A stretch of 64,000 bases of DNA. Origin: an uncultured archaeon (lineage in GTDB: Archaea > Thermoplasmatota > Thermoplasmata > Thermoplasmatales > Thermoplasmataceae). Shown one piece after another: positions 13,694 through 64,000 of this stretch. Position numbers and translations under genes: made by a program. The number at the start of each line of letters is the position of its first letter. Positions within the stretch are counted from its first letter, which is position 1. Location of the stretch: NCBI GenBank assembly GCA_000965745.1, contig CP009479.1:832001-896000 (forward strand). Direction: 5' to 3'. The notes under the pieces were generated by a model. The model did not search any database. It saw only the letters and a list, made by a program, of their open reading frames with translations, and was not told where the DNA came from.

Positions 13694-14353
13694 ATGACTC
13701 TCACCCCCGCTCAGATCGATCACATAGCTAACGATCTAAAATCCTTGATAAGAGTGGAGAAGAAGTCAAAAAAGGTAAAAAAACTCGATGGCGGCTTCTA
13801 CAAAGGTGTAGTCGATGCTCTGGAGACTCTCAGGTCAGAATCGGAGAAGCATTTGAAAAACCAGGATATTTCGAGCTACATAAACATCAACAACAGGATC
13901 CAGGACATTGAGAGGGATTTCAAGGACTTTTTCCAGAGGCGCTTCAGCAAGATGGCAATCCTCTCCCTCTACGAGCTCGACTCGGACCTCATGAACTCAC
14001 TCACCGGGGAGGAGAGGGAATTTGTGATCAGGCTTCATAACATGATGCAGGATGAATTCAACAGGCTTCTTCTGAAAGAGAGAGTGGCCCACGAAGAGGA
14101 GGTCGAAGAGCCCGAATTGCAGCCCGCAGATGAGAAAGAGGAACCAGTTCGGCAGCAAGAGATCCGTGAGACCCACGAGCAGGCTGCAGAAAAGAAGTTC
14201 ATCCTCGTTAGAATCGTGGGGGATCAGCCTCCTATCGCCCAACCTGAAAGAGATTACTATCTTCATGACAACGATCTCGTATATCTACCCGAGAATTTCG
14301 CTGAACTTCTAGTTAAGCGCAAGACTGCTGTCAAGGTTAACATCAGGATATAA
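13694..14353 (+). CDS. DNA replication complex GINS protein (A-domain, acidic linker, C-terminal B-domain)
   Basis: Helical A-domain (RRFSKM..LTGEER), acidic linker, beta-rich B-domain ILVRIVGD..YYLHDNDLVYLPENFAELLVKRKTA. Confidence 0.82.
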   Translation: MTLTPAQIDHIANDLKSLIRVEKKSKKVKKLDGGFYKGVVDALETLRSESEKHLKNQDISSYININNRIQDIERDFKDFFQRRFSKMAILSLYELDSDLMNSLTGEEREFVIRLHNMMQDEFNRLLLKERVAHEEEVEEPELQPADEKEEPVRQQEIRETHEQAAEKKFILVRIVGDQPPIAQPERDYYLHDNDLVYLPENFAELLVKRKTAVKVNIRI

Positions 14354-54819: not shown

Positions 54820-54904
54820 GCAGGGGTTGTCGAGATTGGTCAAAGGCGCTAGATTGAGGGTCTAGTCCCGTAGGGGTACGTGGGTTCAAATCCCATCCCC
54901 TGCA
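54820..54904 (+). tRNA. tRNA-Leu (anticodon GAG); probable integration site
   Basis: GCAGGGG/CCCCTGC acceptor stem, CTAGA-TTGAGGG-TCTAG anticodon arm, long variable arm, GGTTCAAATCC T-arm; TATA-like sequence upstream. Confidence 0.96.
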
Positions 54905-55166
54905 TACCTCCAAATGTTCAAAACACTACACCAGCAAACGATCCATTTTTGTAACTCTTTAAATACTAAGCGTAATTCATACTACTATATTCATATTTAA
55001 ACATCACTAATTGTGTTTTAAACACATACTCTTTGAGAAGGAATTGTCGGAATTGGCATAGGAAAATGGTTTCCCCATTCTATTAGGTTGAACCTTACAG
55101 CGGCATAGAAAATTCCAAATTTCCGCCTTGTAGAGAAAAATATTAACGAAGATTTAAATTATTGGG

Positions 55167-56237
55167 GTGCCTGTAATACGTAAGGATATGATCGAAGAAA
55201 GCAATCCAGCAGAGGATTCAATTCGACACTTTGCGGCCCAGGCATCTGCTTTTAAAAGTCACAAGAAAGCAAGGGACGCTGCATTTAAAGCTTGGAGAAC
55301 AATGAGAGCTAGAGAGCTTGAAATAGCTTCTAGGGGAGTTCCAAGGCTAGATAAATTCAACAAAGACGCATACCTAGTTCCAGAAGGCGTCAGCTTCTCG
55401 ACATACAGGACTTCTTCTCCTTTAGTTAAAACCTCAAAGCTAACGAGCAAGGAAAATGGCGGTGTTGGGAAGGAACTCTCAGACGGTTGGGTAGCAAATT
55501 ATGCTACAGGATGCACTCATGGATGCAAATTCTGCTACGTGGATGCAATCCATAAAAAATTTGGTCAGAAAAGGGTTGGCAGTATTGTGTATGATGACTG
55601 GGGAGATTACTTTGCTATCCCTTCCAATCTGGACGAGGTTATTGAAAATACTAAGTGGAAGAGGTGGAGCGGGACTGAAGTGATGCTTTCATCAACTCAT
55701 GACCCATATCTTCCTCAGGTTAACAAGTACACAAGAAAAATCCTCGAAAAGGCTCTTCCCGAAGGGGTAAAATTCTGCATACAAACGAGAAATCCACTTG
55801 TGGAGCGTGATATGGAGCTTATAAGTCAATACCGGGACCAAGTGAGACTTCAGGTGTCCATAGCATCAATGAATGAGGATCTCTCCAGAGCTATAGAACC
55901 AAGGGTAGTTAAACCAGAAAGAAGACTGCAAATCCTCGAAAAGGCTAGAGAACATGGGCTGAATACCGGAGTCATAATAGCTCCTGTATTCCCGGAACTA
56001 AAAATCAGACCACACGTTTATGCAGACATAAAAGCCATTGCCTCAAGACTAGAGACATTTAGGCCAGACCACATATATGGCGAATCACTGCATCTAAGGG
56101 GAATAAACATAGCATATGTTGAAGATGCACTTGGGCAAGCAGTGAATATCGATGGGTTTGACAAAAAGGCGGAAGAATGGTTCCACAAAGCCTTAAGTTG
56201 CTATAATCTGAAAGGAATTTGGTGGAAGGAGTTTTGA
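55167..56237 (+). CDS. Radical SAM protein, SPL/SplB-related
   Basis: NYATGCTHGCKFCY (CxxxCxxC), SSTHDPY, IQTR, IAPVFP. Confidence 0.85.
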   Translation: MPVIRKDMIEESNPAEDSIRHFAAQASAFKSHKKARDAAFKAWRTMRARELEIASRGVPRLDKFNKDAYLVPEGVSFSTYRTSSPLVKTSKLTSKENGGVGKELSDGWVANYATGCTHGCKFCYVDAIHKKFGQKRVGSIVYDDWGDYFAIPSNLDEVIENTKWKRWSGTEVMLSSTHDPYLPQVNKYTRKILEKALPEGVKFCIQTRNPLVERDMELISQYRDQVRLQVSIASMNEDLSRAIEPRVVKPERRLQILEKAREHGLNTGVIIAPVFPELKIRPHVYADIKAIASRLETFRPDHIYGESLHLRGINIAYVEDALGQAVNIDGFDKKAEEWFHKALSCYNLKGIWWKEF

Positions 56238-56244
56238 ACTATTC

Positions 56245-57255
56245 TTATTCAGTATCAAACTTCAGGGTCTGTTGTTCAAAACATTTGTTAAGGGCTGTCT
56301 CAGCATCTTGTCCAGTGACATTTTCAAGATGGTAGGCTATCCAGTTAACAGACTTGACCCAATCACTTCCGGTTAGTGTATTTCTCGTGTAATAACCTAA
56401 GTGATATACGGGTGTATTTTTACGGGAATAAATTGGGAAAGCTTGCCCCTTCTCTTTTCCTATGCTATCTTCGAATTGTTTGTTCAACAGGCTTCTATAG
56501 GTTCCCTTCGAGTTTAGGTCGTTCATTTCAACATCAAGTATTTCCTTCAACTCCTCTGGGGTTTTGCCCAAACTGGTGCATATTGCCTTTACATAACCTA
56601 GATTACCTTTCTTCAGGGCACCATAAACTCGTTCAGATCCAGAGCTAATATTCACTAGGTAATCAACCCCTAAGTATTTTGAAGATAGGTATCTGTAAGT
56701 TCTCCAGTCAGTTTCCATTCCTTCTTGGTCCCCAAGGGCAAAAATAAGTGGCTTTTCAAATTTTTCTTCTATCAATTTGACGGCTTCACCGATTTTTTTA
56801 TTACAGTTGCCCTCGATTACATGAAACTTATCTTGAAGCCCCATTTGACCAACCCTACTTTTCAAGAGGCGAGCTCTCTCTTCGTTGCTCTCAATAAATA
56901 TCGCCATGTCAAATTCTCTGTTTCCCTCTTGTTCCACGGTTGCCGCAAAAGGAGATCCCACAACAGCTCTAAGTTTGCTACCTCTCTTGCCTCTAGTGAC
57001 AGTAAGGCCACCTCCCGCGTACAGGTCAAGATAAATAGCTCCGTCATAATTTGCAGAAATAGCTTTTTCTCCCTTAGCTACCATCAGAAATCTGCTTGCA
57101 ATGCTCCTCACTGCAACCAGTTTAGACAGCGTATAGGGCTTATAACTCACATCGTGGCTCGATGGTTCAAACACTTTTGCTAGCCTGACAATAGTTTCTA
57201 TTCTGTCGCTTAAATATTTGATAGAGGCATCAATACTCGGTTTCCTGACTTCCAA
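56245..57255 (-). CDS. TcmP-like (three-Cys-motif partner) SAM-dependent methyltransferase-fold protein
   Basis: YLDLYAGGG, GSP, FIE..ER...L, GNCN, DQEG..W, PVYHL pattern. Confidence 0.7.
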   Translation of the reverse strand: MEVRKPSIDASIKYLSDRIETIVRLAKVFEPSSHDVSYKPYTLSKLVAVRSIASRFLMVAKGEKAISANYDGAIYLDLYAGGGLTVTRGKRGSKLRAVVGSPFAATVEQEGNREFDMAIFIESNEERARLLKSRVGQMGLQDKFHVIEGNCNKKIGEAVKLIEEKFEKPLIFALGDQEGMETDWRTYRYLSSKYLGVDYLVNISSGSERVYGALKKGNLGYVKAICTSLGKTPEELKEILDVEMNDLNSKGTYRSLLNKQFEDSIGKEKGQAFPIYSRKNTPVYHLGYYTRNTLTGSDWVKSVNWIAYHLENVTGQDAETALNKCFEQQTLKFDTE

Positions 57256-57387
57256 TTTAAAGATCAGTTTATATCATGAAACTGACCATAAAAAAATGTA
57301 TCGGTCAAGCAGCCCTTGAATATTTCTCAATAGACTTCTTAATTGATGACATGACTTCAGAGAAACAAGTGCTGCTTACTAAGAGTT

Positions 57388-57407
57388 TTTGATACCATAG
57401 TATCAAA
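57388..57407. promoter_or_regulatory. Palindromic operator-like site A
   Basis: TTTGATAC-CATA-GTATCAAA; related to site B at 63711. Confidence 0.5.
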
Positions 57408-57594
57408 TTTGTGGAGTTAGCGGAATACCATCTCTCCGAGAAACAGTTTTTTGTAGAGACTGACTGCTAACGATTATTAGCAGAGTAATCGCTTTGAAAA
57501 CCAGTATCAGAAAGGGTTTGCAGAGGGGGATAATGCCAGGGTATATTACCCCCTTTGACAATTATATAAGTAGAACACAGGAAGTGATGAGAAA

Positions 57595-57801
57595 ATGGTT
57601 GACAGAATAAGTGTAGCTTGCCATGATGACTTCTTGGAAAGTCTTGATAAGCTTTCAGAAAGGCTTACGCTCTCCAGAAGTGCAACGCTAAGGCTAGGAG
57701 TGTATGAGTTGGCTAAAAAGGAAGGTATGGGCCCTGGTGACGTTAACACCAGGAATCCCGTGGACAGTTCCCAGGAGTTGAACCAAGGAGAGTCCGTATG
57801 A
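57595..57801 (+). CDS. Ribbon-helix-helix (CopG-like) regulator
   Basis: RISVAC strand, LDKLSERL helix, SRSATLRLGV helix; TATA TTATATAA about 30 nt upstream. Confidence 0.75.
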   Translation: MVDRISVACHDDFLESLDKLSERLTLSRSATLRLGVYELAKKEGMGPGDVNTRNPVDSSQELNQGESV

Positions 57802-57932
57802 AAGATACAAACTTTGCTAATAAACATTCGCAATCAGACCGTAAAAATACAGGTTCTCCAGCTAACAATAGGGCTGAACGGATGAAAGAATACATGGATC
57901 TCCTGGACGAGCTCTTTGAGGGTGTTGAGTGA
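57798..57932 (+). CDS. 44-aa hypothetical protein
   Basis: ATGA overlap with RHH stop; GGAG SD; manual translation MKDTNF...MKEYMDLLDELFEGVE. Confidence 0.5.
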   Translation: MKDTNFANKHSQSDRKNTGSPANNRAERMKEYMDLLDELFEGVE

Positions 57933-57943
57933 GGAGGACCAAA

Positions 57944-60094
57944 ATGCAACCAAGTGGTTATTCTGCACTTTCAGTGGCCTTAAGTCCTGGTCAGATAGAT
58001 GAGTTTGAGAAACGCCTGCAGTTCCTCACAGAAGGTCGTTCAAAGAAATTCAGCGAGGTTTTGTCACAATATTCTGCGGTCGCAATCACTTTGCATCAGG
58101 CAAAGGAAATTGATCGCCTGAGAGGGATTCAAAGCAAACTGGTCAGGGTGTATGACATTTACAGCGGATATGACCAGCCCGACCCCGCTCCAGAGCTAGT
58201 TGAGGGATGGATGGAATCTGTAAGAGAGGAGGTCATCAATAAGAACGAAGTTGACCGTCAAAAGCTAGCCCAGGAAATAAACGAGGAATACGGGTTTGCC
58301 AATCTAAATGGTGTCGAGTTCCTTAGATACGATGATGCTGAAGGATATTGGAAGCCTGATGCTGAGTTGTTCATAGGGAAGATAGTCAGACATGTTCTGC
58401 CCGATGAGTCCACACAACATATTGTCAATGAGGTTTGCCATTGGATTAAGGACTATAGACTATTAGCAAACCCTTCTGAATTTGAGAAAGTCCCTGATGG
58501 GTTGATAAATATGCCAAGAGGTGTGTTCAACATCAGAACGGGAAAGCTGGAACCCCACAATCCAGACTACCACTTCAGATATGTGTTGCCTTTCAACTAC
58601 AATCACAGGGCCAGGAAGTCCAAGTTCATGAAGGTCCTTTCCGAGATTACTGAGGATGACCCCCGTAAAGCTGTTAGGGTTCTAGAGATGTTTGCATGGG
58701 TCCTCATTCCTGGATATCCCATACAGAAAGCTATTGCACTGTATGGGAACGGAAACAATGGAAAATCAGTGATTTTGGGAGTTCTGTCTGCATTTGTAGG
58801 CTCCCTAAATGTCTCTGGCGTCACTATGCAGCAGTTATGTGACAACAGATTTGCCGCAGCAAATCTTAGAGGGGCCCTTGCCAACATCTCAGGAGATGTC
58901 GGTGCAGGTGCATTACTGGACACCTCTCAGTTCAAGCAGGCAACGGGAGGGGACAGAATAGATGCGGAGAAGAAGGGCGTTCAGGAACCCTTACGGTTCT
59001 GGAACACAGCTAAGATGATCTTCTCCTTCAATACTCTTCCAAGAACCAGAGATACCACTAATGCGTATTTCAGGCGGTTTGAGTTAATTGAGTTGGTACA
59101 GGACTTTGAAGGCAGAGAGGACAAGAAGCTTCTGAGCAAGCTCACAACAGAGGATGAGTTGCAGTCCATATTCAACACAGTCAGTTCGGTATTCCTGCCA
59201 GCGCTCCTGGATAAGCTGGAGTTCGAGTTCGGAAAGAAGGCTGATGAAATCAGGACAAATTACGAATTGAATGCAAATTCCGCTCTTGCATTCATAGATG
59301 AAAGAATAGCGCCTAACAGCATTGGACAGATACTTTCCCAAGACCTATATGCCAAATATACTGAATGGTGCAAGGAAAAAGGAGTTGTTGCACTCTCAGA
59401 GGAATCCTTCGGAAGTGCACTCATCAAGCTGTCAGGCATAGAAGGGGTTTTTAAGTCTCGAAAGCAGGAGAACGGTGTCAGGAAAAACTACTACGTTGGA
59501 ATATCTTTGACAACACCTGAGAATGATTCTAACAAACCTAAAAACAAGGAAGAGACCCCGACCTATGGCACGTTTGAAGAGGCAGTATTAGACTATATTT
59601 CCAATCACTTCAAGGACCGGAGTGCCATAGGTGGCATAGTATCTGTACTCCCGGATGGTTTGGGAAACGGTACGAGAGTACAAAACCCATGCCACCTATG
59701 GCAGCAAAAGAGAACCATACTCTCAAAAGATGCCGTAATAGCATCTCCAGAGAAGTGCCATAGCTTATCGGTACCTATGGCAGAAGATGATTCCAAAGAC
59801 TGTGTCTCCCCATCTGAAGTTGACGACATCAGCGAAAGTAATGAAAACGAGGGAGTGCAGACAGATACTGAAAAATCACTGCTTGAAAGAGTTATCGACC
59901 TTCTTACTGATTGTACATACAACACCACAGAGAAATTCAGATCTGTTCAGTATCTTGCTGAAGCAGCAATAGACGGAGACATCACACATAGCACAATCTA
60001 CGAGGCTCTGGAGGAAGGGGTTAGCCGGGGACAGGTAGTCAAGAAGGGTGCAAAGTACGGATTCAAGTGTTACGTTGGAGGTGATTCAACATGA
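57944..60094 (+). CDS. D5/P4-type SF3 replicative helicase (D5_N + SF3 + wHTH)
   Basis: INMPRGVFNIRTG..PHNPD D5_N, Walker A GNGNNGKS, FKQATGGD, FSFNTLP, AYFRR, LYAKYTEWC; start moved to ATG 57944 behind GGAGG. Confidence 0.9.
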   Translation: MQPSGYSALSVALSPGQIDEFEKRLQFLTEGRSKKFSEVLSQYSAVAITLHQAKEIDRLRGIQSKLVRVYDIYSGYDQPDPAPELVEGWMESVREEVINKNEVDRQKLAQEINEEYGFANLNGVEFLRYDDAEGYWKPDAELFIGKIVRHVLPDESTQHIVNEVCHWIKDYRLLANPSEFEKVPDGLINMPRGVFNIRTGKLEPHNPDYHFRYVLPFNYNHRARKSKFMKVLSEITEDDPRKAVRVLEMFAWVLIPGYPIQKAIALYGNGNNGKSVILGVLSAFVGSLNVSGVTMQQLCDNRFAAANLRGALANISGDVGAGALLDTSQFKQATGGDRIDAEKKGVQEPLRFWNTAKMIFSFNTLPRTRDTTNAYFRRFELIELVQDFEGREDKKLLSKLTTEDELQSIFNTVSSVFLPALLDKLEFEFGKKADEIRTNYELNANSALAFIDERIAPNSIGQILSQDLYAKYTEWCKEKGVVALSEESFGSALIKLSGIEGVFKSRKQENGVRKNYYVGISLTTPENDSNKPKNKEETPTYGTFEEAVLDYISNHFKDRSAIGGIVSVLPDGLGNGTRVQNPCHLWQQKRTILSKDAVIASPEKCHSLSVPMAEDDSKDCVSPSEVDDISESNENEGVQTDTEKSLLERVIDLLTDCTYNTTEKFRSVQYLAEAAIDGDITHSTIYEALEEGVSRGQVVKKGAKYGFKCYVGGDST

Positions 60095-60282
60095 TCCCTT
60101 CACTTGAATCATTCGAGACCAAACAGCAGGACACCATGATACTGGTTGCCATTTCGCAGGACTTCAATGTTGCCTGGAAGGACCGGGACTGGTATCTGCA
60201 CGAACAGGGCCTCGTATATCTTGATGTGGAGCTCGCTGAAATGCTGATTCAGAGGGGCATTGCCAGGAGGGTGAGAAGATGA
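60091..60282 (+). CDS. Stand-alone GINS B-domain homolog
   Basis: 21/46 identical by hand alignment to the C-terminal domain of host GINS (13694-14353); ATGA overlap with helicase; GGAGGTGA SD. Confidence 0.8.
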   Translation: MIPSLESFETKQQDTMILVAISQDFNVAWKDRDWYLHEQGLVYLDVELAEMLIQRGIARRVRR

Positions 60283-60638
60283 AACGAGGACTGAATCCGG
60301 GGAAATCGCTCGCAGACAAGCTCCAGCTATTGCCCAAGAAGGTCCCCAGACTCATCCAGGAAAACCTGGATGGGATAGCATCTCCATACCTTGGAAATAT
60401 TGTGGTTATCTCTGACCAGGGGCAACAGGATGCACTGGGCAGTGAGATTATCAGTTTTCTTGAGGCCGAGGGGTTTGCTCTGGAGGCCGCACCCGTATAT
60501 GTGCGACACAAGGATCACATTGGAAAGGTCTGGAAGTTTTCGCTGGGGCTCTATGTCAGTCTGTTCTACCGCGTACAGGAAGCAAATAACATCTCAATCA
60601 CTGGAAGGATTGCAAGGGTCCAGGGGAGGTTCCCATGA
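60279..60638 (+). CDS. Hypothetical protein (element)
   Basis: ATGA-coupled, SD present. Confidence 0.65.
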   Translation: MKRGLNPGKSLADKLQLLPKKVPRLIQENLDGIASPYLGNIVVISDQGQQDALGSEIISFLEAEGFALEAAPVYVRHKDHIGKVWKFSLGLYVSLFYRVQEANNISITGRIARVQGRFP

Positions 60639-60838
60639 AATTCGGAAAATACTCTGTCTCGGAGGTTCAGAAATTCAAGGGCCAACTCGTGAAGGTCTAT
60701 TACTTCGATGTCAACAAGGGCCTGGTCACCCACGCTGGCGAAGTGCTGAATCGTTCATTCAAGTATCTGCCCGTAGAATCTCGGACCTGGAGGAAGAGGA
60801 TACCCCTGGAGCAAATCGTGGAGGTCCAGGAAATATGA
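60635..60838 (+). CDS. Small beta-rich hypothetical protein (element)
   Basis: ATGA-coupled, GGAGGT SD. Confidence 0.6.
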   Translation: MKFGKYSVSEVQKFKGQLVKVYYFDVNKGLVTHAGEVLNRSFKYLPVESRTWRKRIPLEQIVEVQEI

Positions 60839-60969
60839 CTCTCAGAAAGCTACTCATCAGAATATACGAGAACTATCTCTGGCTAGCATACTACAGGCTG
60901 AAATCACGCATTTTCGGGGAGCCTGAATACATATTTCTTGGGGAGGATGACAATGCAGATCGCCCGTGA
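60835..60969 (+). CDS. 44-aa hypothetical protein (element)
   Basis: ATGA overlap, GGAGGT SD; MTLRKLLIRIYENYLWLAYYRLKSRIFGEP... Confidence 0.5.
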   Translation: MTLRKLLIRIYENYLWLAYYRLKSRIFGEPEYIFLGEDDNADRP

Positions 60970-61213
60970 GGAAAGGGAAAGGGCCCGAATCCTTTGGCTG
61001 GTGAAAGAGTCAGAATGGCAATCGGCCAAGCATATAGCTGCGAGATACCAGGAACTGTATCACGAAGAGATGAGCGTCCAGAAAGTCAAGAATATCCTGC
61101 AGCTCTTCATAGATGAGGGTCTCATAAGAGCCAAATCAACAAGACAGCGGAATTTCGCCAGGAATGTCTATTCCAGGAATGAGCCAACACTTATAAGCGA
61201 GGAAAAACTATAA
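60953..61213 (+). CDS. Winged-helix DNA-binding protein
   Basis: RILWLVKE..SAKHIA..SVQKVKNILQLFIDEGLI..VY pattern; GGAGG SD. Confidence 0.72.
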   Translation: MQIAREERERARILWLVKESEWQSAKHIAARYQELYHEEMSVQKVKNILQLFIDEGLIRAKSTRQRNFARNVYSRNEPTLISEEKL

Positions 61214-61250
61214 TTTATTAGGTGTTGAACCAACCATTGTGAGGCAACTC

Positions 61251-61275
61251 TGGGGCAGAGTCAACCACTGCCCCA
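61251..61275. other. GC-rich hairpin between replication and structural operons
   Basis: TGGGGCAG/CTGCCCCA 8-bp perfect stem followed by T-rich sequence. Confidence 0.45.
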
Positions 61276-61404
61276 ACTCCTATTCTTATCATTTTTCAAA
61301 ACCTAACTTATCCTTGAAAACACTGACTTTCCAAACGATTTTATGGCTAAAACATACGAGGTAGGTATATATATGGTTGGCAGGCTGTTTCAGCCAGGTG
61401 ATCT

Positions 61405-62271
61405 ATGGAAAAATTGAAACCTAAACTAAAACGGTTCACCATTTTCGGGTTCCTGGCGGTCATGATCGCCGTGATTGCGCTGCCAGTGGGAACCTCGTTT
61501 GCCCAGGGCATCAGTGGGCATGGAAACACTCAACTGTACTCCACTCAGTTCGTGTCAGAGGCCCTGGCAATGCAGAATGGTACAACTACCTACAGCGCAC
61601 TGCCCTTCAGTTCTGTGAATGGTTCATATACCATTTCAAACAGCTACCTGGTCGCAGGAGTCAACAACACAACTTTCACGGAGAATTACGGTGTAGTCTA
61701 TCTTGCATCGAATATAACATTCAGCGAACTTTCATCTCACTCAGTCAACAAGCTTGTTGCACACATATCTCCAGTCTCCAACATCACAGCAGAACTTGGA
61801 TTTGGGTCTGCATCAGTGACACCTAACGGAACATCTCTCTCATTCACGCCACTGCTTTCACAGAACACCACGGGAACAAATGGCTCTGCAACAATGACAT
61901 TCAACCTTAACCCAGCTGAGCTCTCTGAAAACTCAACAGATGTTGTCGTTCTCAAGCTCCAGTTCACCAATGCATCATCATCGTTTTCAGCCTCAGGCTA
62001 TGTTCTAGGCACCCAGAACGCTGAACCATGGTACATAGCAGGCGAATCTGCAGCCTATGCAGTTGGCGGAACTCTGCTCTTTGCATTCGGATTTCTTGCA
62101 CTCCCACACCTTGACATCAAGGTCAACAAGGCTAAGCTCCCATCGCTCCCAAGGAAGAAGTCCAAGTCATCACGGAAGACACAGACAACTCAGTACAGGC
62201 AGCAGGTCCAGAGAGCAAAACAGGTGAACAGCAGCAACAGAAAGAACTCGAAAAAAGGAGGTCGAAAGTAA
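61405..62271 (+). CDS. Type I membrane glycoprotein with strongly basic C-terminal tail (putative virion protein)
   Basis: Signal peptide, about 11 N-x-S/T sequons, C-terminal TM, 18 K/R and no D/E in the last 50 aa; TATA-like GGTATATATAT upstream. Confidence 0.75.
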   Translation: MEKLKPKLKRFTIFGFLAVMIAVIALPVGTSFAQGISGHGNTQLYSTQFVSEALAMQNGTTTYSALPFSSVNGSYTISNSYLVAGVNNTTFTENYGVVYLASNITFSELSSHSVNKLVAHISPVSNITAELGFGSASVTPNGTSLSFTPLLSQNTTGTNGSATMTFNLNPAELSENSTDVVVLKLQFTNASSSFSASGYVLGTQNAEPWYIAGESAAYAVGGTLLFAFGFLALPHLDIKVNKAKLPSLPRKKSKSSRKTQTTQYRQQVQRAKQVNSSNRKNSKKGGRK

Positions 62272-62738
62272 TGGCAGACACAGACTACATGCTATACAAG
62301 CGGATTATCTCGAAGCGTATGAGTGTCGGTGCAACCATCCTGGCATCATTCCTGGTGCTCATAGAACTTGCACTGCTCTTCTCTAGACCGTCATTCGGAT
62401 TCGCTGGACATACCTACTACGTCAGCCAGGGTGTTGCAGCCTTTGCAATGCTCATTGGTGCACTCTTTTGGGCCATTGCAGAGATGTTCACACCCGCAGG
62501 AAGGACATTCTGGGCCCTGGCATCACGGTTCATAGTTGCATTCCTGATTGGCGGAATATTCGGCGGTATAGTCGGTTCAGTGAGTGATTTCGGGCAGCTT
62601 GTGCTGGTCCCTGCATCAAACGGAAACGGGCTTGCAATATTCATGCTCCTGGGGTATCTCTGGGTATTCATCGTCCTGGTATATTCCGGTGCATGGATGC
62701 ACGCCAAGAACTTTGTCAAGAGAGGTGGTAAGCAGTGA
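62271..62738 (+). CDS. Four-TM membrane protein (putative virion protein)
   Basis: TAATG overlap, AGGAGGT SD, four hydrophobic segments. Confidence 0.75.
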   Translation: MADTDYMLYKRIISKRMSVGATILASFLVLIELALLFSRPSFGFAGHTYYVSQGVAAFAMLIGALFWAIAEMFTPAGRTFWALASRFIVAFLIGGIFGGIVGSVSDFGQLVLVPASNGNGLAIFMLLGYLWVFIVLVYSGAWMHAKNFVKRGGKQ

Positions 62739-63085
62739 ATGTGGTAACGGCAATCGCAGCCAAGGTGCTCCCCGCAACAACAAGCGGCTCAGGGACATCC
62801 GGTCTTGGAATGACCATCTTCAACTCGATCTGGAAGTTGGTGATGGGATTCCTTGGCGGCATACTGGATGGGGTCAACCTTCTCATGAAGGATACCTTTG
62901 GCGGTATCGGCCAAGCGATCATGCAGGTATTCCAGTCCTGGGGATTCTCGGTGAACTCTCAGTTCGGTGTCTGGGCCCCTGTCGGACTCGTCCTGGTGCT
63001 TGGTGTAGCTGGAGCCCTGATATACGTCATGTTTGACGCAATCGGCATAGAGAAGGACGTGCTGCACGGGGAAGAAGACATATAG
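62735..63085 (+). CDS. Small hydrophobic protein, paralog 1
   Basis: Amphipathic helix plus FGVWAPVGLVLVL TM. Confidence 0.72.
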   Translation: MNVVTAIAAKVLPATTSGSGTSGLGMTIFNSIWKLVMGFLGGILDGVNLLMKDTFGGIGQAIMQVFQSWGFSVNSQFGVWAPVGLVLVLGVAGALIYVMFDAIGIEKDVLHGEEDI

Positions 63086-63102
63086 ATGGAGGGTGAAAAT
63101 AA

Positions 63103-63363
63103 TTGACACTCTCCATTCTCACTTTTTTTACCCAGATTTTCCAGTTCATAATTCAGGGATTGTTCGGTCTCATCAGCGGCTCTTTTGACTTCATTCTCTC
63201 GCTGGCAGGCAGCAGCATTCAGTCAGTGTCTGAACAGTTCGCACTGTCTGTTGAGGCATTCGGTATATGGTCCGTTCCGATGCTTGTTGTTGTCCTATCA
63301 ATCACTGCAATCGGAGTATATGCGATCTTATCAGGGAGCGAAATGGTGGAGGGTCTCATTTGA
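63103..63363 (+). CDS. Small hydrophobic protein, paralog 2
   Basis: TTG start with GGAGGGTGA SD; FGIWSVPMLVVVL TM. Confidence 0.72.
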   Translation: MTLSILTFFTQIFQFIIQGLFGLISGSFDFILSLAGSSIQSVSEQFALSVEAFGIWSVPMLVVVLSITAIGVYAILSGSEMVEGLI

Positions 63364-63695
63364 GCGTAGTCAGCTTCTTCCAGAATCTCGGTCAGCAGGC
63401 ATGGGGAGGTCTCACATGGCTCTACAATAATACAATAGGAGCAGGTCTGACTCTCTTTCAGAATGAAGTTCTGTCAGGTGCTGAATCCTTTGTCCTCAGC
63501 ATTGCATCAGCGGCGCTCTCATTCTTTGGACTCATACTGTCCACAATCAATGGGATATTCGCCAGCTTCTTCAGCTCAATAGTGTTTATCTCTGCCAGTT
63601 TGGGAGTTTGGGCATTGCCTGTGGTGGTGTTCATACTCTTGGCTGTTTTCATCGTTATGTACACGTTCATCAAGCTGGTTGTAGACCTTCTGTGA
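63360..63695 (+). CDS. Small hydrophobic protein, paralog 3
   Basis: TTGA overlap with GGAGG SD (start moved from 63267); LGVWALPVVVFIL TM. Confidence 0.72.
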   Translation: MSVVSFFQNLGQQAWGGLTWLYNNTIGAGLTLFQNEVLSGAESFVLSIASAALSFFGLILSTINGIFASFFSSIVFISASLGVWALPVVVFILLAVFIVMYTFIKLVVDLL

Positions 63696-63710
63696 ACTGT
63701 GAATTATTTT

Positions 63711-63726
63711 TGATACTACAGTATCA
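63711..63726. promoter_or_regulatory. Palindromic operator-like site B
   Basis: TGATACT-AC-AGTATCA, with extra half-sites at 63737 and 63914. Confidence 0.5.
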
Positions 63727-64000
63727 TTTTTTAACACAGTATCAGAAATAATGATAGAATGAAGCTCCCTGGCTCTCCCTCCCTGGTAGTCCAACCCTGG
63801 GACATCGAACCAATACATGGGAGACTAGCCCCGTTCCTCCATTTCTGATAGACTAATAATAATATAATAGCCCCAAGTGCGATTTTTTCGCGTACGCGTG
63901 ATCGGAATATTTGTGATACTGACTTTAGAAAGGTTCTCGAAAATACCCTAATCAATGTCTCATTAGTGCCGTATTTCAAACAACAATGTACAAAATATAG

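Follow-up and report, generated by a model that had tools for sequence, protein, structure and literature searches.

The DNA analysed here, referred to as the window, is a 64,000-nt stretch from an uncultured archaeon of the Thermoplasmataceae (positions 832,001-896,000 of contig CP009479.1, assembly GCA_000965745.1); window coordinates are used unless stated otherwise. The window is part of the complete 2.23-Mb genome of this acidophile (G000:C1:832001-896000). A segment that begins within it, 11,196 bp long from core to core and bounded by two copies of the 3' end of a tRNA gene, is beyond reasonable doubt an integrated, recently acquired mobile genetic element. The element is a member of a previously undescribed family of Thermoplasmatales elements, no description of which was found in literature searches. 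Its members are held together by a conserved block of genes for membrane proteins, around which the replication and integration genes are exchanged. The best reading of the element is that it forms a virus-like enveloped particle, a proposal to which we would give about an even chance of being correct.

Integration at a tRNA-Leu gene

The integration target is an intact tRNA-Leu(GAG) gene (54820-54904, + strand) identified with ARAGORN. The final 11 nt of this gene and one additional nucleotide make up the left attachment (att) core, attL (CATCCCCTGCAT, 54894-54905, + strand, read from the sequence). The right end of the element lies outside the window, 2,101 nt past the window end; features in this region are given in the coordinates of locus L001, which equal window coordinates minus 54000. 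Here, the attR core (CATCCCCTGCAT, L001 12090-12101, corresponding to genome positions 898090-898101) is found 55 nt past the start codon of an intact gene for a 434-aa, Xer-like tyrosine integrase (L001 10731-12035, equivalent to 64731-66035 of the window, - strand; PF00589, 8.7e-26). The match of the integrase covers positions 2-169 of the 172 in the PF00589 profile. The two att cores form a perfect direct repeat (12/12 bp), and the 11-mer part of the core occurs twice in 20 kb against 0.04 occurrences expected. The genes located 3' of attR specify an AsnC/Lrp regulator and, next, a class-II aminoacyl-tRNA-synthetase-like protein.

The site is empty in two congeneric species, and the tRNA gene is identical in both to the one described here. 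In the first (G001), 66 nt separate the tRNA-Leu gene from an AsnC-family gene. In the second (G002), the tRNA gene and the left flank are 96% identical to those bordering the element, and the sequence following the tRNA gene (TTCCCAAGAATTT) resembles the flank past attR (TTCCAAATTT). The other three species of the genus yielded neither a DNA match to the element nor a homologue of m155, its most conserved gene (see below). Integration can be considered settled because of the att repeat, the adjoining integrase and the empty sites in the two congeneric species. Thus, a tyrosine recombinase at one end, an att repeat overlapping a tRNA 3' end and relatives with an empty site, three features of mobile elements that a tyrosine recombinase integrates at tRNA genes, are all found here. 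The predicted attP junction reads ...TAGTGCA-CATCCCCTGCAT-ACCTCCAAATG..., while in the predicted attB junction the tRNA gene is joined to TTCCAAATTTAGCC.

The original prediction, made from the letters of the window, had called a candidate provirus of an enveloped Thermoplasmatales virus at this tRNA gene and had named an attR copy and an integrase downstream as its test. Both were found, 0.7-2.1 kb past the window end. Neither of the two findings that it had listed as unfavourable was encountered: the genes are not core in relatives, the element being missing from the two congeneric species with an empty site, and no VirB4/type IV secretion system (T4SS) set follows. Base composition would fit another view, in which the segment is a fixed host genomic island for cell-surface proteins that has lost its mobility: the GC content of the element (0.450) is near that of the genome (0.464), and 18% of same-sized genome windows are equally low or lower. 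We regard such an island as very improbable in light of the 12/12 att repeat, the intact integrase and the empty site in closely related species. Furthermore, in other genomes the membrane module (see below) is always accompanied by replication and integrase genes.

A second integrase-like stretch is present elsewhere in the same genome (G000:C1:1109209-1109676). It is 65% identical to the element's integrase at the DNA level and could correspond to the host XerA or belong to another element.

A conserved block of membrane-protein genes

Five genes in the right portion of the element (61405-63695) encode proteins that each contain at least one hydrophobic segment of at least 19 residues. They are preceded by a hairpin with an 8-bp stem followed by a T-run (61251-61275, + strand, read from the sequence) and, past the hairpin, by the second TATA-like box of the element (61366-61374). 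Judging from the sequence, the two presumably act as a terminator and as the promoter of the membrane operon, respectively.

The first gene, m288 (61405-62271, + strand), encodes a candidate spike or adhesin, as judged from hydropathy, sequons and an AlphaFold2 (AF2) model. The protein consists of a signal-anchor helix, a ~160-aa beta-sandwich ectodomain with 11 N-x-S/T glycosylation sequons, a C-terminal transmembrane (TM) helix and a conserved basic tail ending in KKGGRK. It seems conceivable that this tail could bind DNA. The pLDDT of the modelled domain is 75-82. Searches by fold and by features (Foldseek against PDB and BFVD, VIA, ESM Atlas) returned only generic sandwiches of the carbohydrate-binding module (CBM)/galactose-binding type, with low TM-scores and Z values of at most 8.5; the m288-type ectodomain gave a Foldseek E of ~2e-4 and, in the fused homologue described below, VIA Z values of 8.0-8.5. 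The CBM-like sandwich is a common fold, seen in phage receptor-binding proteins as well. Six homologues of m288, all metagenomic and 39-56% identical, were found among 5.8 billion proteins.

The second gene, m155 (62271-62738, + strand), overlaps m288 and specifies a protein with four TM helices in the structure model. This is the most conserved gene of the family, its product being 75% identical to the homologue in the closest relative (L017). A hidden Markov model search of 1.84 billion representatives found 53 clusters only. The remaining genes, m116 (paralogue A, 62735-63085), m86 (paralogue B, 63103-63363) and m111 (paralogue C, 63360-63695), all on the + strand, encode small membrane proteins whose alignment reveals a common motif, [FY]G[VI]W[AS]P, ahead of a TM helix. 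Of these, m116 is conserved in all related loci, while m86 has two hydrophobic segments and not a single lysine or arginine. The start of m111 was placed at ~63360 rather than 63267, since the alignment with the homologue in L017 begins only at residue 32 of the 142-aa open reading frame (ORF). None of the membrane proteins had a match in PHROGs, Pfam or NCBIfam, the NCBIfam scan covering part of the module; the PADLOC scan covered none of the module's membrane proteins.

Two further conserved genes lie on either side of this block. Upstream is the gene for a 91-aa putative winged helix-turn-helix (wHTH) regulator (60938-61213, + strand) that is conserved along with the membrane module. In L017 (40% identity) and L041, its homologues immediately precede the module, and its sole family match is a weak one to a PHROG (0.0055). 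Downstream is o105 (L001 10105-10422, + strand), which encodes a conserved, soluble protein of 105 aa, 46% identical to its L017 homologue. The small regulator, m288, m155, the three small paralogues and o105 constitute the core of the family. On metagenome contigs, the genes occur in the order regulator, m288, m155, m116 (with an extra basic 125-aa protein next to it), m86, m111, o105-like gene, integrase. The module is syntenic in L017/L018, in a contig from SRR31012003 and in L041, L045, L042, L080, L083 and L084.

The L017 element (12,092 bp) likewise lies between two copies of a 12-nt sequence from the 3' end of a tRNA gene. Comparison with the element described here shows synonymous sites to be saturated and the proteins to be 45-75% identical, with dN/dS values of 0.25-0.38 where computable. 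Between m116 and m86, L017 encodes a very basic protein of 125 aa (L017 11695-12072) that is absent from the 11,196-bp element and could be a DNA-binding (nucleoprotein-like) component. Within the order, m155 homologues with 30-44% identity were found in 14 of 168 other genomes, 13 of the 14 from the same family and several of them multi-copy. When the element's own genome is included, an m155-type gene is present in 15 of 169. The organisms concerned are Thermoplasmata or Thermoplasmatales archaea, mostly metagenome-assembled genomes (MAGs) from mine drainage.

At three loci (L020 6407-7336, L021 2742-3666 and L080 7455-8123), all on metagenome contigs, the module is broken or flanked by DDE transposases and adjoins host 2-oxoacid dehydrogenase genes. 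These modules look like decaying copies. A 2.7-kb module contig (L074, DYKN01000113.1) is filed under a Rikenella microfusus MAG, probably as a result of a binning error.

Larger relatives and a fused core protein

In larger relatives (up to 29 kb, within a range of ~18-30 kb), m155 is fused N-terminally to an m288-like domain to form a single protein of 390-426 aa. The fused genes are found at L039 9909-11081, L043 9270-10550 (- strand) and L044 8986-10191 (- strand). In its AF2 model (pLDDT 72), the fused protein passes from four TM helices through a fifth one into a beta-sandwich and has a further TM helix at the C-terminus. Gene order is thus permuted: in the element described here m288 precedes m155 as a separate, overlapping gene, whereas in the distant relatives m155 comes first and the m288-like domain follows. 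Through the fusion, the two proteins are functionally linked.

Directly after the three small paralogues, the larger relatives encode a giant PKD-repeat protein of 1,157-2,511 aa. Conserved ORFans of ~113, ~95 and ~280 aa, none with a Pfam match, are found 3' of this gene. In L045, the large protein contains a CarboxypepD_reg domain. In one complete genome (G116:C1:1810703-1869500, comprising L039, L076 and L040), a 29,432-bp unit is repeated in tandem with 99.99% identity, and the junction between the units falls within a PF00589 integrase gene (L076 13247-14299). The arrangement points to tandem integration or, alternatively, to integration of the SSV type, in which the integrase gene is split. 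The unit also holds genes for an Eco57I-like restriction-modification protein, a PadR regulator and a zincin-like protein. No Pfam match to VirB4 or HerA was found among its scanned ORFs, nor any to a VirB4/CedB/TraG-type ATPase among the scanned proteins of L038-L045 and L076 (giant PKD, replication-module and downstream ORFs). A candidate NTPase of the larger relatives is a conserved ResIII-like/zinc-ribbon protein of ~330 aa (L076 1310-2311, L042 18371-19345).

Exchange of replication and integration genes around the core

The first gene of the element's replication operon encodes a ribbon-helix-helix (RHH) regulator of the CopG type (57595-57801, + strand; PF01402, 1.2e-4, over cutoff), ahead of which lies a TATA-like sequence (TTATATAA, 57562-57569). 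A 44-aa ORF separates this gene from that of a D5/P4-type superfamily 3 (SF3) helicase, the replication protein (57929-60094, + strand; TIGR01613, 1e-54). The helicase scores 185.5 bits on TIGR01613, against a cutoff of 108.7, which places it in the P4/D5 family. Domains PF19263 (DUF5906), PF08706 (D5_N) and PF03288 (Pox_D5 winged helix) all score over cutoff. No primase domain, whether of the archaeo-eukaryotic primase (AEP) or the Toprim type, was detected in the N-terminal 140 residues with Pfam or NCBIfam.

The operon is tightly coupled. The gene for o63, a 63-aa GINS-C-terminal-like miniprotein (60091-60282, + strand), is translationally coupled to the helicase stop codon. The original prediction had named a mini-GINS in this operon; in BLASTP, o63 shows 40% identity over 57 residues to the C-terminus of a 219-aa putative GINS protein of the host (13694-14353; E 7e-11). 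The related element L041 has an o63 homologue as well. Two more small, translationally coupled ORFs follow in the ORF list, o119 and o67 (60279-60838, + strand), neither of which has a match in Pfam, PHROG or NCBIfam. When compared to P4/D5 replicons, the element has the same D5_N/DUF5906/Pox_D5 helicase but differs by the undetected primase domain and by the coupled GINS-C-terminal-like miniprotein. The gene content read from the window at the outset (tRNA, accessory genes, tightly coupled operon with RHH regulator, helicase, small ORFs and wHTH regulator, hairpin, TATA-like box and five membrane genes) was found in its entirety.

Replication genes are swapped among members of the family, which carry D5, MCM, DUF5131 with an intein, UvrD or unrecognised genes in this role. 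L017/L018 have another, unrecognisable set of replication genes and a 435-aa integrase unrelated to the 434-aa integrase of the element. The SRR31012003 contig carries a D5-like helicase and cargo of the SIR2 type. At least three integrase arrangements can be distinguished: the intact Xer-like gene beside attR described here, the unrelated 435-aa protein of L017 and the PF00589 gene spanning the unit junction in G116.

Another reading is that the element has been cut down from the larger (~18-30 kb) relatives, keeping the membrane core, and is now their satellite or a defective form of them that spreads with a helper only or never. Consistent with this, it is small (11.2 kb), it lacks the PKD giant and the ~113-, ~95- and ~280-aa ORFans, and its helicase has no detectable primase domain. 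On the other hand, at least three independent compact elements (the present one, L017 and the SRR31012003 contig) share the gene set, are under purifying selection and differ in their replication and integrase modules. This pattern points to a stable lineage rather than a one-off deletion. Moreover, no second copy of the module that might serve as a helper is found in this genome, and every gene of the element, as well as both att cores, is intact. Overall, we consider a satellite or defective origin rather unlikely.

Comparison with known viruses

The element resembles members of the Pleolipoviridae (including GacPV1, ThalV2 and AvPV1; PMC10919331) in several respects. Its size is within their 7-17 kb range, it is integrated at a tRNA 3' end with the integrase beside one att site, and its conserved block combines a type-I membrane glycoprotein with small integral membrane proteins, the replication modules being variable. 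The integrase provides the one link from the element to known viruses: its best viral matches in the phage collection are the integrases of GacPV1 and ThalV2 (33-34% identity over 91-92% of the query, E 2e-51). The Pleolipoviridae hallmark is the V-shaped VP4 spike/fusogen fold (PMC10919331), ~500 aa in size, whereas the sole ectodomain of the element is, in the model, a single ~160-aa CBM-like sandwich. Comparisons with hhalign uncovered no similarity to VP3, VP4, ORF6, ORF7 or the NTPase of HRPV-1, HRPV-3, GacPV1 and ThalV2. Protein m288 aligned to VP4 from these four viruses with a probability of 0.1%, and a VP3-like protein scored at most 0.8% for all three families, with reference alignments of only 2-4 sequences. 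The element further departs from the Pleolipoviridae in its three small membrane paralogues and their 4-TM partner protein.

Other features recall spindle-shaped viruses (SSV1 of the Fuselloviridae, His1 of the Halspiviridae and the Thaspiviridae-like NMC1). These include small (~75-110 aa), very hydrophobic paralogues with two hydrophobic helices, RHH and wHTH regulators and integration at tRNA genes. NMC1, a spindle-shaped virus of the Nitrosopumilaceae and the best match in the phage collection, also has a D5-type helicase. In this virus, ORF33 and ORF34 (~88 aa each), candidate coat proteins by position only and unannotated in the record, are followed by the 2,331-aa ORF35, a layout shared by the larger relatives of the element. 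The alignment to spindle-virus proteins (SSV1 VP1/VP3, His1 VP21 and NMC1 ORF33/34; 5 sequences) gave an hhalign probability of 0.4%. The element differs from the Fuselloviridae in that its integrase ORF stays whole upon integration, with the att core outside the ORF, and from spindle-shaped viruses in having no DnaA-like ATPase and, in this compact form, no giant protein. For spindle-virus capsid and pleolipovirus core proteins taken together, hhalign probabilities did not exceed 11.5%, the top one reflecting an overlap of TM helices; the reference alignments are small (2-5 sequences), and tiny membrane proteins diverge fast. The element should not be filed under either Pleolipoviridae or Fuselloviridae.

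Among all ORFs of at least 45 aa on both strands, a single Walker A motif was found, and it belongs to the D5 helicase. From this it follows that the element is without a packaging, conjugation or pleolipovirus-type NTPase. Unlike conjugative elements (T4SS, Ced/Ted-like), it encodes no second P-loop protein. No capsid, terminase, portal or VirB4 gene was found anywhere in the element, so that the absence of capsid, terminase, portal and conjugative ATPase genes noted for the window holds for its whole length. Searches with the fused core protein (tblastn) produced no match in 50,697 phage records.

Particle formation or plasmid transfer

In the most likely working model, to which we give about an even chance, the element would be a temperate, non-lytic enveloped virus, similar to a pleolipovirus in its working without being one. 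A virus-like particle is favoured because the conserved core is a surface/membrane module and not a replication module; because the layout of the relatives, with small paralogues followed by a giant adhesin, recalls spindle viruses; because a glycoprotein combined with small membrane proteins recalls pleolipoviruses; and because the conserved, KKGGRK-ending tail of m288 could bind DNA. Thermoplasma, Ferroplasma and Cuniculiplasma have no cell wall, a condition that, if shared by the present host, would suit budding and fusion.

The element was inserted by its Xer-like tyrosine integrase, which recombined site-specifically within the final 11-12 nt of tRNA-Leu(GAG). Following excision, the D5-type helicase would replicate the circle using the host replisome, possibly recruited via the mini-GINS. 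Expression of the membrane operon would load the host membrane with element proteins, and the DNA would exit in a lipid-bounded, vesicle-like particle. Finally, m288, assisted in the larger relatives by the giant PKD protein, would bind glycans on the surface of the next cell.

A number of results weigh against particle formation. Relatives are absent from IMG/VR under three queries (m288, m155 and the m155 alignment), and no homology of the membrane proteins to any known virion protein was detected. The VP8-like NTPase gene shared by Pleolipoviridae is missing. Inspection of L018, L083, L084, L086 and L088 for circular contigs revealed no terminal overlap. The original prediction had listed CRISPR spacer matches among its checks, and none was found. 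The genome has a single array (G000:C1:1247135-1250876; 57 repeats, 56 spacers of 31-35 nt), and none of its 56 spacers has a counterpart in the element, elsewhere in the genome or in the related loci retrieved. Short DNA matches to the element occur in related genomes, none of them inside a CRISPR array. This comparison covered one array and species-representative genomes, and the repeat type of the array is nearly absent from the related genomes. Lastly, the compact element encodes neither the PKD giant nor the three ORFans that its larger relatives conserve, so it may need a helper or be non-transmissible. The integrated mobile element of the original call is thus supported; its virus and envelope part is inferred from the membrane module as the one conserved core, the exchange of modules around it and the giant adhesin-like protein of the larger relatives.

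Also to be counted among the adverse points is the resemblance to the pT26-2 family, integrative plasmids of Thermococcales and Methanococcales that are 17-38 kb in size and have seven core genes, including one for a VirB4/HerA-like AAA+ ATPase, t26-14p (PMC6972569). The core of these plasmids is rich in TM proteins, has no homologues outside the family and includes carbohydrate-binding and CarboxypepD_reg domains (PMC6972569). Like them, the element has a membrane-rich conserved core, swapped replication and integration modules and a tRNA gene as integration site (PMC6972569). It may thus be an integrative plasmid whose membrane module mediates cell contact, fusion or some other particle-free or vesicle-assisted transfer of DNA between wall-less Thermoplasmatales cells, comparable to the pT26-2 core or to plasmid vesicles. 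An architecture like that of pT26-2 (PMC6972569), with a CarboxypepD_reg domain in the large protein of the relative L045, would be accounted for in this way, as would the lack of virion hallmarks and of IMG/VR matches; D5/P4-type helicases, too, are common on plasmids. Against this, the VirB4/HerA-like ATPase, a core gene of pT26-2, is missing from the element, and none was seen in the scanned ORFs of the 29-kb relative. The fused core protein has no tblastn match in 72,556 plasmid records (PLSDB), and in a plasmid the replication module, not the surface module, would be expected to be the conserved part. The host order is also different. The element was set apart from pT26-2 on the AAA+ ATPase, the tblastn search and the host order. 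We view an integrative plasmid as the main rival, less likely than a virus-like particle.

Returning to the virus-like particle, we suggest tentatively, at somewhat less than an even chance, that the module defines a new viral family, enveloped and non-lytic, whose hosts are wall-less acidophiles of the Thermoplasmatales and whose structural proteins have no relatives in any known virus. The spike of such viruses would be a complex of the 4-TM protein and the CBM-like glycoprotein, specified by two genes or by a fused one, with the basic cytoplasmic tail tethering the DNA. The envelope would owe its shape to the three small paralogues. There would be compact lineages (11-15 kb) as well as large ones that carry a PKD adhesin (18-30 kb), the former perhaps as satellites of the latter.

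Cargo genes and candidate regulatory sequences

Two convergent cargo genes occupy the region between the tRNA and the replication operon. The first encodes a radical SAM protein (55167-56237, + strand; PF04055, 4e-21) that comes closest to the PA0069, Rv2578c and 'mobile pair B' radical SAM models, yet remains under every one of their cutoffs. A homologue 52% identical to it is found inside the related element L086 (5859-6932). The second encodes a TcmP-like protein (56245-57255, - strand; TIGR04474, 63.7 bits for a cutoff of 53) that matches the PADLOC candidate defence family PDC-M41A (9.6e-15). The pair may be a recurrent cargo of the element family.

The palindrome GATAC-N4-GTATC occurs in two copies, one upstream of the replication operon (57391-57404) and the other past the membrane operon (63712-63725), as compared to 0.00 matches expected. 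Lying in a T/A-rich context, the two copies bracket the replication and membrane operons. The second shows matches of 26-28 nt at 93-96% identity in two genomes of other genera (G165 and G113). From its sequence, the palindrome appears to be a conserved candidate operator. The final in-window stretch of the element (63696-64000), which holds this second copy, also contains an unconserved 82-aa ORF (63731-63979, - strand).

Between o105 and the 3' end of the integrase gene lie six GTGAAC direct repeats of iteron-like appearance (L001 10576-10631, window-equivalent 64576-64631), spread over 56 nt as three pairs ~20 nt apart. The cluster could be a replication origin or provide arm sites for the integrase or a regulator. 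A 67-aa ORF called across the repeats is probably spurious.

Implications

We know of no cultured virus of the Thermoplasmatales, and literature searches found none either. Proviruses rarely turn up in surveys of the Thermoplasmatota, with ~30 regions counted in 5,041 genomes of this phylum taken together with 2,275 of the Nanobdellota (PMC13573593). Elements of the kind described here are invisible to hallmark-based tools. The family shows cleanly how modules are swapped while a membrane core persists, and how fusion and permutation of genes link two core proteins, m155 and m288. The family is recognisable and widespread, and the exact boundaries, the att sites, the defined core and the complete host genome make the question of how these elements are transmitted directly testable.

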